NCBI GenBank assembly: GCA_900759335.1
Contig: CAAEUX010000102.1
Coordinates: forward strand, 78,713 to 142,712
Direction: 5' to 3'
DNA length: 64,000 bases
Source: an uncultured Collinsella sp.
GTDB lineage: Bacteria; Actinomycetota; Coriobacteriia; Coriobacteriales; Coriobacteriaceae
In this document: one piece after another, positions 19,772 through 46,315 of the stretch
Layout: each line of letters opens with the position of its first letter
How positions within the stretch are numbered: position 1 is the stretch's first letter
The notes under the pieces: model-generated
Database searches by the model: none
Told to the model about the DNA's origin: nothing
The model's input: only the letters and a program-made list of their open reading frames with translations
Translations under genes and position numbers: made by a program

Positions 19772-20647
19772 ATGGATTGCCCGGTCACCGCTCGTCCCAC
19801 CGTTATCGTTATCTCCGACTCGCTCGGCGATACCGCTTGTGAGGTGGTGCTTGCGGCGTCCGGGCAATTTGATGAAGGGGCTTTTCGCGTTTTACGTCTG
19901 CCCAAGGTGACTTCCGTGGAGCAGGTCAAGTCGTTTGTGGGTCCGCGCGTCGATGCCGATCATCGCGATATTGCCGTGTTCCACACCATTGTCGATCCGG
20001 CGCTTCGCGCCCGTGTGCTCGATTACCTGGGCATGCTGCATATCCGTTCGGTCGACCTGATCGGCCCGACGCTCGCCGTGCTGTCGTCGCTCATCGGTGT
20101 GCCGCCCAAGGGCGTTGCGGGCGTGATTCACAAGACCGATGACCGCTATTTCCATCGTATCGAGGCCATGGAGTATTTCGTTGGGCACGATGACGGGCGC
20201 GGCTGCGACGATCTGTCGGGTGCCGATATCGTGCTGCTGGGCGTATCGCGCACGTCCAAGACGCCGCTGTCGATGTATTTGGCCTATCAGGGCTACAAGG
20301 TCGCCAATGTCCCACTGGCGCATGGCATGGAGCCGCCCAAGTCGATTTACGAGGTCGACCCGATGCGCCTGTTCGGCCTGATTTCGACCGTCGATGTGAT
20401 TTCCGAAATTCGCGATAGCCGCTTGGGCGATGACTACGCTCGTGCCGTTGCCGGCTCCTATGCCGAGCCCGAGAGCGTGCACAGCGAGCTCGAGGAAGCT
20501 CGCGCCCTCATGAAGCGTCTAGGCTGCTTTGTGGTGCGTACCGACGGCAAGGCCATCGAGGAAAGCGCCTCCGAGATCATTAGCCACTTGGAGGAAATCC
20601 AAGAAGTCCGTGCCCGCCGCGCCGCCCGTCGAGCCCAGCAAAAGTAG
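19772..20647 (+). CDS. Pyruvate, phosphate dikinase regulatory protein (bifunctional kinase/pyrophosphorylase, DUF299)
   Basis: P-loop-like GVSRTSKTPLSMYLAYQGYKVANVPL is characteristic of PDRP/PpsR. Sits directly upstream of ppdK. Confidence 0.85.
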   Translation: MDCPVTARPTVIVISDSLGDTACEVVLAASGQFDEGAFRVLRLPKVTSVEQVKSFVGPRVDADHRDIAVFHTIVDPALRARVLDYLGMLHIRSVDLIGPTLAVLSSLIGVPPKGVAGVIHKTDDRYFHRIEAMEYFVGHDDGRGCDDLSGADIVLLGVSRTSKTPLSMYLAYQGYKVANVPLAHGMEPPKSIYEVDPMRLFGLISTVDVISEIRDSRLGDDYARAVAGSYAEPESVHSELEEARALMKRLGCFVVRTDGKAIEESASEIISHLEEIQEVRARRAARRAQQK

Positions 20648-20677
20648 CTAATTTGGGACGGGGTTTTTAGCTACCCC
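20644..20677 (+). repeat. Copy 2 of the palindromic intergenic repeat; it overlaps the TAG stop of the PDRP gene.
   Basis: GTAGCTAATTTGGGACGGGGTTTTTAGCTACCCC. Same element as 12624-12654. Confidence 0.6.
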
Positions 20678-20713: not shown

Positions 20714-20749
20714 GGGGCAGCTAAATAAGCCCCGTCCCAAATTAGCTAC
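20714..20749 (-). repeat. Copy 3 of the repeat, inverted. With copy 2 it forms a ~106-bp composite palindrome.
   Basis: Reverse complement of 20714-20749 is GTAGCTAATTTGGGACGGGGCTTATTTAGCTGCCCC. The first 19-20 nt are identical to copy 2, so a long RNA hairpin is possible. Confidence 0.6.
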
Positions 20750-20824
20750 TTATGGTAAAGCAATTTAGCAAGAAACTAGCATTTGACCTGCAAGTTTGCT
20801 GCATTGGTATCTTCATAAGGTAAC

Positions 20825-41938: not shown

Positions 41939-44587
41939 CTAGCAGACGGCGTAATCCTGGGGCTCGCGGCCGTAGTAGGCGTCCAGGTAGAGCTCCTTGA
42001 TCTCGCTCATGAGCGGGTAGCGCGGGTTGGCGCCGGTGCACTGGTCGTTGAATGCCTGCTCGGTCATTTCGTCGAGGGTGTCGAGGAAGTACTGCTCGTC
42101 AACACCGTAGTCAGCGATGGTCTTCTTGACGCCGATGAAGTCCTTGAGCTCTTCGAGCTTCGTGATGAAGTTCTCGAAGACCTCCTTGTCGTCCTTGCCC
42201 TCGATGCCGCAGTACTTGGCCATCTCGGCGTAGTTGTGCAGCGCGTTGGGGTAAGGATACTGGGAGAAGGTACCCATCTTGACGGGAGCCTCGGCGGCGT
42301 TGTAGCGCATGACGCGGGTCAGGATGACAGCGTTTGCGAGGCCGTGGGGCAGGTGATGGAAAGCGCCGAGCTTGTGGGCCATGGAGTGGTTGAGGCCCAG
42401 GAAGGCGTTGGCGAAGGCCATACCGGCCATGCAGGAGGCGTTGTGCATCTCCTCGCGGGCGTGCGGGTCCTTGGCGCCGTTCGTGAAGCTGGAGGGCAGG
42501 TTCTCGAAGACGAGCTTGGCAGCGCGCTCGGAGAGGCCCTTGGTGTAGTCGGAAGCCATGATGGAGACGTAGGACTCGATGGCGTGGGTCATGACGTCGA
42601 TGCCGGAGGCAGCGGTCAGGCCGCGCGGGGCGGTCATGCAGTTGTCGGCGTCGACGATAGCCATGTTGGGGAGCAGCGCGTAGTCGGCGAGCGGCCACTT
42701 GATGCCGGTCTCCTTGTCGGTGATGATGGCGAACGGCGTGCACTCGGAGCCGGTACCCGAGGAGGTCGGGACGGCGACGAAGTAGGCCTTCTTGCCCATC
42801 TCGGGGAAGGTGAAGATACGCTTGCGGATGTCCATGAAGTCCATGGCCATGTCCTCAAACTTGCACTCGGGGTGCTCGTACATCATCCACATGATCTTGC
42901 CGGCGTCCATAGCGGAGCCACCGCCGACGGCGATGATGACGTCCGGCTCAAAGAGAGCCATCTGCTTGGCGCCGCGACGTGCGCACTGCAGCGACGGATC
43001 GGGCTCGACGTCGTAGAAGCAGTCGTGGGCGATGCCCATCTCGTCGAGCTTGGCCTCGATGGCGCGGGTGTTGCCATTCTTGAAGAGGAACTGGTCGGTG
43101 ACGATGAAGGCGCGCTTCTTGCCCATGACGTTGCCCAGCTCGTCGAGGGCGACGGGCGTGGAACCCTTCTTGAAGTAGACCTTCTCGGGAGCGCGGAACC
43201 ACAGCATGTTCTCACGGCGCTCGGCCACAGTCTTAACGTTGATCAAGTGCTTCACCCCAACGTTCTCGGAGACGGAGTTGCCGCCCCAGGAGCCGCAGCC
43301 CAGGGTCAGAGACGGCTTCATGCCAAAGTTGTACAGGTCACCGATGCCGCCGTGCGAGGACGGGGTGTTGATGACGATACGGCAGGCCTTCATGACGTGC
43401 TCGAACAGGCTGATCTTCTCGGCCTGGGCGGGGTGCACATACAGAGAGGCGGTGTGGCCCGGGCCACCGGCGAGCACGAGGTGCTCGGCCTTGTCGACGG
43501 CCTCCTGGAAGTCCTTGGCGTGGTACATGGCCAGGACCGGGGAGAGCTTCTCGTGGGAGAACTCCTCCTTGGCGGGGTCGGTGGAGGTGACCTCGGCGAT
43601 CAGGATCTTGGTCTTGGCGGGAACCTCGATGCCGGCGAGCTCGGCGATCTTGGCAGCGGCCATGCCGGGGATGCGGTGATCGAGAGCGCCGTTCTTGAAC
43701 ATGGCGGCACGCAGGGCCTCCATCTCGGCACCCTGCTTGACGAAGTAGCAGCCGCGCTTCTGGAACTCGGCCTTAACCTGGTCATAGATGCTGTCGATTA
43801 CGGTCACGGACTGCTCGGAAGCGCAGATCATGCCGTTGTCGAAGGTCTTGGAGTGGATGATGGAGTTGACGGCGAGCAGCACGTCGGCGGTGTCGTCGAT
43901 GACGACCGGGGTGTTACCGGCGCCAACGCCCAGGGCGGGCTTGCCCGAGGAGTAAGCGGCCTTGACCATGCCCGGGCCACCGGTGGCGAGGATGATGTCG
44001 ACGTCGCGCATGACCATGTTAGTCAGCTCGATGGAGGGGACATCGACCCAGCCGATGATGCCCTCGGGGGCGCCGGCCTTGACGGCGGCGTCAAGCACGA
44101 GCTTGGCGGCGGCGATGGTGCACTTGGCGGCAGCCGGGTGCGGGGAGATGATGATGGCGTTGCGGGTCTTCAGGCAGATCAGCGTCTTGAAGATCGCGGT
44201 GGAGGTGGGGTTGGTCGTCGGGATGACGGCGCCCACGATGCCGATGGGCTCGGCGATCTTGGTGATGCCGTAAGCCTCGTCGCGCTCCAGGACACCACAG
44301 GTCTTGGTGTTCTTGTAAGCGTTGTAGATGTACTCTGCGGCGTAGTGGTTCTTGATGACCTTGTCCTCAAGAACGCCGCGGCCGGTCTCCTCGATGGCCA
44401 TCTTCGCCAACGGGATACGAGCCTTGTTGGCGGCCATGGCGGCCTCATAGAAGATCTTGTCGACCTGCTCCTGCGTGTACGTAGCAAAAAGCGCCTGGGC
44501 CTCTCGCATCTGAGCGAGCTTGGCCTCAAGCGCCTCTACGTTGTCCACAATTGCGGGAGTAGTGTTTTCCGGTGACTTTTTCACCAT
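41939..44587 (-). CDS. adhE: Bifunctional acetaldehyde-CoA / alcohol dehydrogenase
   Basis: 882 aa. N-terminal ALDH domain and C-terminal Fe-ADH domain with a GGG NAD-binding linker. The N-terminus (...AIVDNVEALEAKLAQMREAQALFATYTQEQVDKIF) is typical AdhE. Confidence 0.95.
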   Translation of the reverse strand: MVKKSPENTTPAIVDNVEALEAKLAQMREAQALFATYTQEQVDKIFYEAAMAANKARIPLAKMAIEETGRGVLEDKVIKNHYAAEYIYNAYKNTKTCGVLERDEAYGITKIAEPIGIVGAVIPTTNPTSTAIFKTLICLKTRNAIIISPHPAAAKCTIAAAKLVLDAAVKAGAPEGIIGWVDVPSIELTNMVMRDVDIILATGGPGMVKAAYSSGKPALGVGAGNTPVVIDDTADVLLAVNSIIHSKTFDNGMICASEQSVTVIDSIYDQVKAEFQKRGCYFVKQGAEMEALRAAMFKNGALDHRIPGMAAAKIAELAGIEVPAKTKILIAEVTSTDPAKEEFSHEKLSPVLAMYHAKDFQEAVDKAEHLVLAGGPGHTASLYVHPAQAEKISLFEHVMKACRIVINTPSSHGGIGDLYNFGMKPSLTLGCGSWGGNSVSENVGVKHLINVKTVAERRENMLWFRAPEKVYFKKGSTPVALDELGNVMGKKRAFIVTDQFLFKNGNTRAIEAKLDEMGIAHDCFYDVEPDPSLQCARRGAKQMALFEPDVIIAVGGGSAMDAGKIMWMMYEHPECKFEDMAMDFMDIRKRIFTFPEMGKKAYFVAVPTSSGTGSECTPFAIITDKETGIKWPLADYALLPNMAIVDADNCMTAPRGLTAASGIDVMTHAIESYVSIMASDYTKGLSERAAKLVFENLPSSFTNGAKDPHAREEMHNASCMAGMAFANAFLGLNHSMAHKLGAFHHLPHGLANAVILTRVMRYNAAEAPVKMGTFSQYPYPNALHNYAEMAKYCGIEGKDDKEVFENFITKLEELKDFIGVKKTIADYGVDEQYFLDTLDEMTEQAFNDQCTGANPRYPLMSEIKELYLDAYYGREPQDYAVC

Positions 44588-44680
44588 TTGTGTCTCCTTG
44601 CGATCGGAGATTTACCCTACGCCTTGCATGATAGCAAGAAATAATTCGGTGAACGGTCAGATTCCCGTAAAAGACAAACT

Positions 44681-44708
44681 AAAACGCTTCAATAAACTGA
44701 AGCGTTTT
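44681..44708. promoter_or_regulatory. Perfect palindrome AAAACGCTTCA-ATAAAC-TGAAGCGTTTT in the adhE upstream region; operator or RNA hairpin candidate.
   Basis: 11-bp perfect arms with a 6-bp spacer, about 95 bp upstream of the adhE start codon, in a locally AT-richer stretch. Confidence 0.3.
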
Positions 44709-44741
44709 AACAAATAACTATCGGCCTGCTGCATCGCCTTG

Positions 44742-44986
44742 CTCATTGGGGACAGACTTACATGAGTATTTCAATGGGAAAACGGGGCATCTGTTTGATA
44801 ATCGCTATTCGCGGGTCGCTGTTGAGTCGGACACACAGGTGGTGCAGCTGCTCGACTATATTCATCTTAATCCCGTGAAAGGTGCGCTCGACTCGCTCGA
44901 GGCGTACCGTTAGTTATAAGGCATATCAGCTGGGCTATGATCCCTTTGACATCTGCAAACCCTCATGTAAGTCTGTCCCCAATGAG
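44742..44986 (+). mobile_element. Decayed insertion/REPtron-like remnant: perfect 25-bp terminal inverted repeats enclosing a RAYT/IS200-like transposase C-terminal fragment.
   Basis: IR-L 44742-44766 (CTCATTGGGGACAGACTTACATGAG) and IR-R 44962-44986 (its exact reverse complement). 195 bp lie between them. Confidence 0.55.
44776..44913 (+). pseudogene. Transposase fragment: the C-terminal ~45 codons of a REP-associated tyrosine transposase / IS200-like (Y1) transposase.
   Basis: Translation GKTGHLFDNRYSRVAVESDTQVVQLLDYIHLNPVKGALDSLEAYR* matches the conserved RAYT/TnpA(IS200-like) tail G.LWQ.RY..H.IR.E...........YIH.NPVKAGLV. No N-terminal HuH or catalytic Tyr region is present. Confidence 0.5.
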
Positions 44987-45023
44987 TGCAAAAAGGCGCC
45001 CTCCGTAGGGGAGAGCGCCTTTG
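44987..45023 (-). terminator. Intrinsic terminator of rpmB (minus strand)
   Basis: On the minus strand: AAAGGCGCTCTCCCCTACGGAGGGCGCCTTT hairpin followed by TTTTGCA. It lies about 70 nt downstream of the rpmB stop and directly abuts IR-R. Confidence 0.55.
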
Positions 45024-45090
45024 GTAAGTTCTATGTGAACGCGAGGTCTTTGACCCGGAGAGTCCGAGGTACTTGTTGGTAAGACCTTAT

Positions 45091-45279
45091 TTAGGAGCGC
45101 GCAACCTTGCCGGACTTGAGGCAGGTGGAGCAAACGTTCATCTTGCGACGGTGACCGTCGACGACGACGTAGACGCGCTGGATGTTGGGGCGGAACTTAC
45201 GGTTGGTGACGCGGTGAGAGTGGCTGATGGAGCGACCGGCAACGGGGTGCTTACCGCAAACTTCGCAAACTTTGGACAT
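45091..45279 (-). CDS. rpmB: 50S ribosomal protein L28
   Basis: MSKVCEVCGKHPVAGRSISHSHRVTNRKFRPNIQRVYVVVDGHRRKMNVCSTCLKSGKV is canonical L28. AAGGAGGG RBS. The track ORF adds 16 N-terminal residues from an upstream TTG. Confidence 0.9.
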   Translation of the reverse strand: MSKVCEVCGKHPVAGRSISHSHRVTNRKFRPNIQRVYVVVDGHRRKMNVCSTCLKSGKVARS

Positions 45280-45639
45280 AACTGACCCTCCTTGGGCGAC
45301 AAACGAACATGTCGCGTTAACAAACAAGCCTGAACTATAGCACAGAAGCAGATCCCTGTACGTAATCTACACAGAGATATTTCTCTTTTGGCGATAGTGC
45401 CCACGCCACGGCCCTGGACGTAGATCCGATTTGCGTGCAGCAGAGGGGATTATGCCAGCTCGCAACAAGGTTTTCAAGCTCGTCCCACAAATATATATAG
45501 GTTTATTGAGCGTTGGGCTCCGTTTACGGATTGCTCCGTATTTATGCTCGCAATTGAGCTCGAGGTTGGCTACACTATCCCTTGACCATTAAAGGGGTAC
45601 GAGATACCCACATGGAATTACATAGCTGCCATAGAGCAG

Positions 45640-45700
45640 CCCTTCCTGTGGGTGTCTGGTCCGCTTTGAGCGGTCGGGCATCTATTTTTTTGACTGTGTC
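45640..45700 (+). promoter_or_regulatory. Candidate PyrR-responsive leader / attenuator upstream of pyrR
   Basis: GC-rich stem (GGTCCGCTTTGAGCGG...) followed by ATCTATTTTTTT just 36 nt before the pyrR ATG. An upstream CATAGAGCAGCC loosely resembles the PyrR-binding-loop AGAGAGGC motif. Confidence 0.35.
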
Positions 45701-45718
45701 AGCAGTCAAGACATGTGA

Positions 45719-46315
<597 letters not shown>

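Follow-up and report, generated by a model that had tools for sequence, protein, structure and literature searches.

A 245-bp unit between adhE and rpmB in the window, the whole 64-kb stretch of DNA analyzed here, is very probably an allele, disabled by deletions, of a domesticated-looking TIRtron (TnpA_Y1 class 2, subclass-2.1-like) that resides at this one locus. In Collinsella, an abundant human gut genus, the same site carries a natural series of alleles comprising the intact gene, half genes, the relic, and bare hairpins, and function has been lost naturally in about one-quarter of the alleles sampled. For annotation, the unit is a dead gene fragment and the annotation of adhE and rpmB is unchanged. 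We suggest that it be labeled a pseudogene remnant and that the 55-amino-acid open reading frame (ORF) within it not be called.

Structure and surroundings of the 245-bp unit

The unit is bracketed by two copies of one 25-mer in inverted orientation, separated by 195 bp (Table 1). The initial annotation had described this pair as perfect, and both positions proved exact. With up to 3 mismatches allowed, the 25-mer matched the 64-kb window at those two places only, and no match arose in 100 shuffles. The left repeat (IR-L) includes GGGGACAG, which fits the GGGGWSAS motif (motif definition in PMC3733652), and has a 5-bp self-stem, CTCAT/ATGAG.

Domain matches of both neighbors bore out the placement between rpmB and adhE. 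The right repeat (IR-R) abuts the intrinsic terminator of rpmB, as had been noted, with the T-run of the terminator ending 3 nt short of the repeat; this terminator is kept beside the repeats in divergent orthologous loci (L124). The stretch had also been described correctly as AT-richer, since its GC content is 0.43 to 0.52 versus 0.60 to 0.68 in the flanking genes, which is normal for intergenic DNA. An AT-rich hairpin with a T-run lies between the element and adhE, some 90 nt upstream of the start codon of adhE; it could insulate as a terminator or belong to a leader or operator of adhE.

Table 1. Positions of the relic TIRtron and its flanking features in the window
Feature	Positions	Strand	Description
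adhE	41939-44587	-	Aldedh and Fe-ADH domains
AT-rich hairpin and T-run	44678-44711	-	Perfect 12 bp (up to 15 pairs); flanking, in all allele types
IR-L	44742-44766	+	CTCATTGGGGACAGACTTACATGAG; sequence and boundary as in full-length alleles
In-frame TIRYT remnant	44767-44913	+	Residues ~84-136 of the 258-aa parent: YFNGKTG(del RTG)HLFDNRYSRVAVESDTQVVQLLDYIHLNPVKGALDSLEAYR, then TAG
Frameshifted continuation	44911-44956	+	Parent residues ~137-153 (..YKAYQLGYDPFDIC)
AAACC spacer	44957-44961	+	Last right-subterminal nucleotides of the parent, kept before IR-R (size-class alignment)
IR-R	44962-44986	-	Exact reverse complement of IR-L
rpmB intrinsic terminator	44992-45022	-	13-bp GC-rich stem, then TTTTT; flanking, outside the element
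rpmB	45091-45279	-	Ribosomal_L28 domain

The interior is a decayed gene

The interior had been taken for a remnant of a RAYT-type Y1 transposase gene that retains its ends, and this identification held. The 55-aa ORF (44746-44913) matched the NCBIfam profile NF047646, REP_Tyr_transpos, with an E value of 1e-5 (25.5 bits, profile positions 99 to 135 of 146). A Pfam search of the same ORF gave no match, and a homologue search with it returned only other fragments of 47 to 97 aa. The full-length parent was recovered through a DNA scan, and the homology of the relic was established through NCBIfam and full-length relatives. By tblastn, the relic matched a 258-aa full-length relative with an E value of 2e-24, placing parent residues 75 to 136 in one frame and 129 to 156 in the next.

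When the size classes found in other genomes were aligned, four deletions separated the window allele from the full unit. The first, deletion 1, spans about 400 nt between the inner edge of IR-L and codon ~84 (junction ..ACATGAG/TATTTCAATGG at 44766/44767) and takes out the inner subterminal repeat (CTCATTTGGGACAGACATCG), the region of the promoter and ribosome-binding site (RBS), and the N-terminal portion that bears the HUH motif. Near 44780, 9 nt are lost in frame, which removes the codons for RTG; at ~44911/44912, the loss of 5 nt causes a frameshift that produces a TAG at 44911-44913. Deletion 4, of about 370 nt, extends from ..GACATCTGC (44956) to AAAC(A/C) just before IR-R (junction 44956/44957) and takes out the C-terminal ~105 codons together with the inner right repeat.

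What is kept is therefore codons ~84 to 153, including the class-2 catalytic motif Y---NP (YIHLNP); what is missing is the promoter and RBS, the first ~83 codons with HUH, and the last ~105 codons with a C-terminal helix-turn-helix (HTH). The fragment had been read as the last ~45 residues of the transposase, which has to be revised: it is internal to the 258-aa parent, and counts as C-terminal only when measured against the ~146-aa catalytic core. The sole start codon of the relic ORF is a TTG inside IR-L that lacks a Shine-Dalgarno sequence, so the relic is presumably neither translated nor expressed, judging by its sequence.

The parent gene is an old resident under purifying selection

Looking for an intact parent in sister genomes had been proposed, and such a gene was found at the identical adhE-rpmB site in most of the sampled Collinsella. 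Its 258-aa ORF begins MPRCAR.. and runs through YYHVFDRGN, CLMDNHFHLMV, GHLFDNRYSRV, DYIHLNPVKG, and YRWSSY to LTVKQIARITGIGATSVTKA.. The protein scored 31.9 bits against Pfam Y1_Tnp (cutoff, 23) and 56.2 bits against NCBIfam REP_Tyr_transpos, which is under the cutoff of 80. In this sequence, the HUH motif is HFH at residues 60 to 62, Y---NP is YIHLNP at 119 to 124, and a WSS motif stands at 137 to 139. In a 32-sequence alignment of the family, H60, Y119, H121, N123, P124, and W137-S138-S139 are invariant and H62 is nearly so. Y1_Tnp was matched by all 32 members; C-terminal matches to HTH_7, HTH_23, and HTH_28 were found in 6, 5, and 1 of the 32 (E < 0.01), all of them weak and under the Pfam cutoffs.

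An AlphaFold model of the parent (pLDDT 89.7) has a helical bundle at residues 192 to 250. A fold search ranked 4ER8 first among PDB entries (E = 6e-7, TMt 0.71), a structure in which E. coli TnpA_REP binds a REP hairpin; the transposases of IS608, ISDra2, and IS200 followed. A sequence search of the PDB with the parent gave nothing meaningful.

We found 1,897 relatives of the parent by database search. Many are full length (~256 aa) at 40 to 55% identity, in Atopobiaceae, Thermophilibacter, and other Coriobacteriia, and many others are truncated forms at >90% identity. Comparison of 62 distinct intact alleles gave a median dS of 0.31 and a median dN/dS of 0.10, which indicates purifying selection and hence a functional full gene. 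Proteins of the TIRYT and RAYT-like kinds occur widely and are subject to purifying selection, and no cellular role is known for them.

Two orthologues at the adhE-rpmB site show 55% (P0068) and 44% (P0089) identity with the protein of the Collinsella aerofaciens type, so the gene is an old, vertically kept resident; more distant homologues (42 to 45% identical) occur in other genomic contexts. Such vertical, resident inheritance has been described for RAYTs (PMC5581495). Each 8-kb stretch examined in 87 genomes holds one TIRYT locus, and the 64-kb window holds no second homologue.

The same site in other genomes holds a series of alleles

We scanned one genome per species for the exact 25-mer and found at least 119 loci, nearly all in Collinsella; because every locus was found through this 25-mer, the sample is biased. 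Sorting by BLAST with the window flanks assigned 87 loci to both flanks and 11 elsewhere, while 21 were cut by contig ends. Two of the loci, L024 (labeled Treponemataceae) and L061 (labeled Alloprevotella), are Collinsella adhE-TIRtron-rpmB loci with flanks 95 to 98% identical to the window, and their contigs are probably mis-binned Collinsella.

The 87 Collinsella loci listed with both adhE and rpmB carry the insert at the identical site with identical boundaries. Insert sizes are 58 bp, 93 bp, 245 to 279 bp (11 loci), 621 to 691 bp (8 loci), 1,030 to 1,126 bp (~66 loci), and 2,550 bp, and an intact 258-aa ORF is present in 63 loci (full unit, ~1.04 to 1.13 kb). The 2,550-bp insert (L102) is a full TIRtron allele split by an insertion sequence, which encodes a 418-aa transposase-like ORF.

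With the window included, 88 complete loci could be classified. About 63 are undeleted. Deletions 1 and 4 occur together in 9, the window among them, deletion 1 without deletion 4 in 5 (two of these have a different right-hand deletion, giving 279 bp), and deletion 4 alone in 1 (L115); a different left deletion (691 bp) accounts for 4. The 58-bp insert (L096) is IR-L + TGCTTTCA + IR-R, and the ends thus remain without the gene, which means that the gene can be lost completely. L096, which forms a 25-bp hairpin with an 8-nt loop, and L070, with its 93-bp insert, are near-empty alleles.

Several observations point to exchange among these alleles. By the four-gamete test, all four combinations of deletions 1 and 4 are present. 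One locus, L067, is a mosaic whose left half is L088-like and whose right half is L028-like. Short alleles stand on at least three sequence backgrounds, and deletion junctions are common to 9 to 14 alleles on different backgrounds. Separately from these observations, four undeleted alleles (L008, L081, L034, and L040) have an extra 14- to 55-nt copy of the deletion-4 junction piece between their two right-hand units; the piece copies a gene-internal segment ending ..GACATCTGCAAAC(A/C).

The initial annotation had offered a recent internal deletion as one origin of the unit. The internal deletion stands, given the full unit at the same site; its recency does not. Another species-level genome (L088) carries the same 245-bp allele with differences at 15 of 195 interior positions (7.7%) and 2 of 50 arm positions, so the window allele is not recent, and the sharing of deletion junctions across backgrounds also counters recency. 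Distance clustering of the shared 200-nt segment is unfit for dating the deletion because relics decay neutrally, intact genes are constrained, and recombination is evident.

The initial annotation had further suggested that the insert rewired adhE or rpmB control, for which the sequence comparison gave no support. The junctions, the rpmB terminator, and the adhE-proximal hairpin are common to full, short, and 58-bp alleles, and nothing specific to the window allele therefore touches the flanks.

The flanking units are predicted hairpins

In all seven homologous loci that we examined, the gene lies between inverted units with a GGGAC/GGGGWC-type core, which is GGGGAC or GGGGTC in six and TTGGGAC in the seventh (L130). 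Across five sequence families, a unit consists of a 5- to 8-bp stem closing a 14- to 17-nt loop that begins (T)TGGGGAC. The stems are wholly different between families: CTCAT/ATGAG, TGGTGCA/TGCACCA, TAGTCAT/ATGACTA, CCGTCCA/TGGACGG, and TGAAGAT/ATCTTCA. The units of L122 and L131 are palindromic over their full length.

In a 10-sequence alignment of units, 86% of cells pair, compared with 58% in shuffles (none of 500 reached the observed value) and 24 to 40% in a slid register. Seven of the 8 stem pairs change on both sides, a covariation count that is descriptive because the sequences were hand-picked after the stems had been seen. The window-type 25-mer by itself is a barely stable hairpin (-1.6 kcal/mol, z = -0.8), and the hairpin claim therefore rests on covariation in relatives.

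Units occur away from the adhE-rpmB site

The 11 loci without the window flanks (L003, L014, L019, L025, L027, L048, L058, L066, L085, L098, and L119; e.g., L098 1480-1620) are orphan clusters. Each has 1 to 3 direct copies of the 25-mer unit along with other GGGAC-type repeats (GGCAGTTTGGGACGGTCC), and the clusters lie directly after an intrinsic terminator, upstream of the same Gfo/Idh/MocA-like oxidoreductase gene. A tblastn search with the family found no TIRYT gene within 8 kb of the clusters at these 11 loci.

A further cluster lies on an IMG/VR contig classed as viral (L138, 919-1000), between convergent genes, where a C. aerofaciens-type unit (TCATTGGGGACAGACTTAAATGA) is mixed with L128-type units (TAGTCGTTTAAGAACGTCCCCAATGACTAG). 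The contig has no adhE, rpmB, or TIRYT homology.

The window itself contains a second inverted pair, at 20639-20666 and 20727-20754 (28 nt, 93% complementary, 60 nt apart), in the intergenic region that separates the PPDK gene from a PPDK-regulator gene (Kinase-PPPase, 19772-20647). Each arm forms a hairpin, GTAGCTAA-TTTGGGACGGGG..-TTAGCTAC, with the stem and TGGGAC-loop architecture of the TIRYT-associated units. Another TIRtron may have left this pair as a relic made up of its bare ends, or the pair may be a REPIN-like doublet. Six related contigs, reached via the neighboring protein, had no Y1 gene beside it.

Origin of the relic and alternative explanations

On the reading that we favor, a deletion allele of a resident TIRtron, the deletions would have arisen by ordinary illegitimate or short-repeat recombination. 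Homologous recombination among alleles, placed between two highly conserved flanking genes, would have produced the mix of deletion-1-only, deletion-4-only, double, and undeleted alleles. The 25-nt units would have survived through lying outside the deleted intervals and having had little time for decay. Judging by the analogous pair of TnpA_REP and REP, TIRYT in an intact system probably uses the units as substrates, binding or cleaving them as hairpins of single-strand DNA. Recombination between the extra piece of the four full alleles and its gene-internal copy, with which it forms a direct repeat, would regenerate deletion 4, and a past tandem of a full and a decayed unit would explain the extra pieces themselves; no such tandem was seen among the 88 complete loci. 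Two findings count against a simple deletion story: the identical junctions on different backgrounds could mean recurrent site-specific events, and the extra pieces demand an added duplication or tandem-ancestor step.

These findings bear on whether TIRYT made the deletions itself, by cleaving and rejoining DNA at or beside the hairpin units and at pseudo-sites in its own gene, so that the relic would record self-processing and the same junctions would be generated repeatedly. In its favor, the start of deletion 1 coincides exactly with the inner edge of IR-L, and a point 5 nt before IR-R is the end of both deletion 4 and the independent deletion of the 279-bp type. Identical junctions are found on three or more sequence backgrounds, and the extra pieces of junction sequence, in three lengths, all abut a repeat unit ending CCCCAATG(A/C)GTG. 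We nevertheless regard self-processing as quite improbable. The junction sites have no common sequence, the deletions of the 691-bp type, L070, and L096 have unrelated endpoints, L067 shows plain homologous recombination within the segment, and losing 20 nt more would turn the 279-bp type into the 259-bp type; no TIRYT cleavage sites are known. The broader proposal, that the units flanking TIRYT genes are hairpin recognition substrates in single-stranded DNA and that the recurrent Collinsella deletion junctions and the extra pieces anchored at unit edges are footprints of TIRYT cleavage and rejoining, is in our estimation unlikely. If true, it would contradict the published view that subclass-2.1 genes lack REP-like structures, and strains with the full, 245-bp, and 58-bp alleles would be natural knock-outs for the role of a widespread domesticated transposase. 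In any case, the long-fixed locus, its natural losses, and the small hairpin units with a conserved TGGGGAC loop lend themselves to biochemical and genetic tests.

The initial annotation had also entertained a MITE-like, REPtron-derived element. On that reading, the unit would be non-autonomous, consisting of two ends with a short interior, and would have been mobilized in trans to insert at this site. Such an element would fit the perfect inverted repeats at the termini of a short non-coding interior, and it would fit the presence of the 25-mer unit in orphan clusters at other loci. Among the at least 119 loci, however, the interior occurs at the one adhE-rpmB site, with the boundaries of the full-length gene, and the non-syntenic loci match the 25- to 33-nt unit only. 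We found no other copy in the 64-kb window and no match in a plasmid collection, the viral contigs yielded one orphan unit cluster only, and the boundaries show no consistent target-site duplication. As the interior is found nowhere else among these loci, the plasmids, and the window, we reject MITE-like mobility as barely credible. Alternatively, the repeat pair might be selected as a long-range RNA or single-stranded DNA stem acting on the rpmB 3' end or on adhE, with the coding remnant incidental. A 261-nt stretch does fold with the 25-bp stem closed (-52 kcal/mol, z = -6.8), and IR-R varies least among the loci, being identical in 72 of the 87, a figure that is inflated because the loci were found by searching for that exact 25-mer. 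The perfect arms in the window, though, have a P of ~0.15 under neutral decay, given the 7.7% interior divergence from the sister allele, and thus need no special explanation; other short alleles have 1 to 4 mismatches in IR-L; and a strong rpmB terminator stands upstream of the unit, with a terminator-like hairpin downstream. A permissive-threshold Rfam search of positions 44000-46000 gave no match. We consider a selected stem very unlikely.

Comparison with known systems

The literature places the parent among class 2 TnpA_Y1 proteins, which are defined by Y---NP (PMC6006769). Within these, the proteins of subclass 2.1 are long, bear a serine motif following the Y motif, and carry an HTH (Bac_DnaA_C, HTH_23, or HTH_28) at the C terminus; the subclass takes in most TIRYT proteins, whose flanking inverted repeats share GGGG[AT][CG]A[CG] (PMC6006769). 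The terms TIRtron and TIRYT (for a tyrosine transposase associated with TIRs) and the consensus GGGGWSAS come from Di Nocera, De Gregorio, and Rocco (2013; PMC3733652). The main texts of PMC3733652 and PMC6006769 do not mention Actinobacteria or Coriobacteriia, and we found no literature linking Collinsella or Actinobacteria with RAYT or IS200.

Because it has Y---NP, an HTH, and arms with a sequence fitting GGGGWSAS, the parent is a TIRtron, and the window copy is its pseudogene relic, a Collinsella member of this known class. Like a TIRYT, the parent is a RAYT-like Y1 protein with HUH and Y---NP that is longer than a RAYT through a C-terminal HTH-type extension, and its gene likewise lies between inverted repeats carrying GGGGWSAS. 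TIRtrons have a low copy number; here, one locus was seen per 8-kb stretch in the 87 genomes. In both cases, units also occur in small clusters elsewhere. The window differs from a TIRtron in holding the deletion relic only, which lacks HUH and HTH. There is also a difference from subclass 2.1 as described by Quentin et al., who reported no REP-like secondary structure (PMC6006769), whereas the units here are short hairpins with GGGGAC in the loop and covarying stems.

A REPtron, that is, a RAYT/TnpA_REP gene with flanking REPs (PMC5581495), is single-copy and resembles the parent in being a vertically inherited Y1 gene between inverted cognate repeats and under housekeeping-like purifying selection, and the best structural match of the parent is the REP-bound enzyme 4ER8. 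The parent departs from REPtrons in scoring under the REP_Tyr_transpos cutoff and in its extra HTH domain; its units lack the GTAG tag, and the exact unit is found at this site and at one or two orphan cluster sites. Among the loci listed and in the 64-kb window, there was no evidence of a high-copy REP or REPIN population.

The IS200/IS605 enzymes (IS608 and ISDra2 TnpA) share the HUH/Y1 fold with the parent, and in both the ends are expected to act as single-strand hairpins. Class-1 enzymes of that group have Y---Q, whereas the parent family has Y---NP; those elements are multicopy and mobile with asymmetric subterminal hairpins, whereas here one site, kept across deep divergence in 87 genomes and in orthologues at 44 to 55% identity, is flanked by symmetric inverted repeats. 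Finally, REPINs and MITEs share with the 58-bp allele and the second window pair an arrangement of two inverted units around a short spacer. Unlike them, the TIRtron shows no sign of copying to new sites, and the 245-bp unit is an in-place deletion product.
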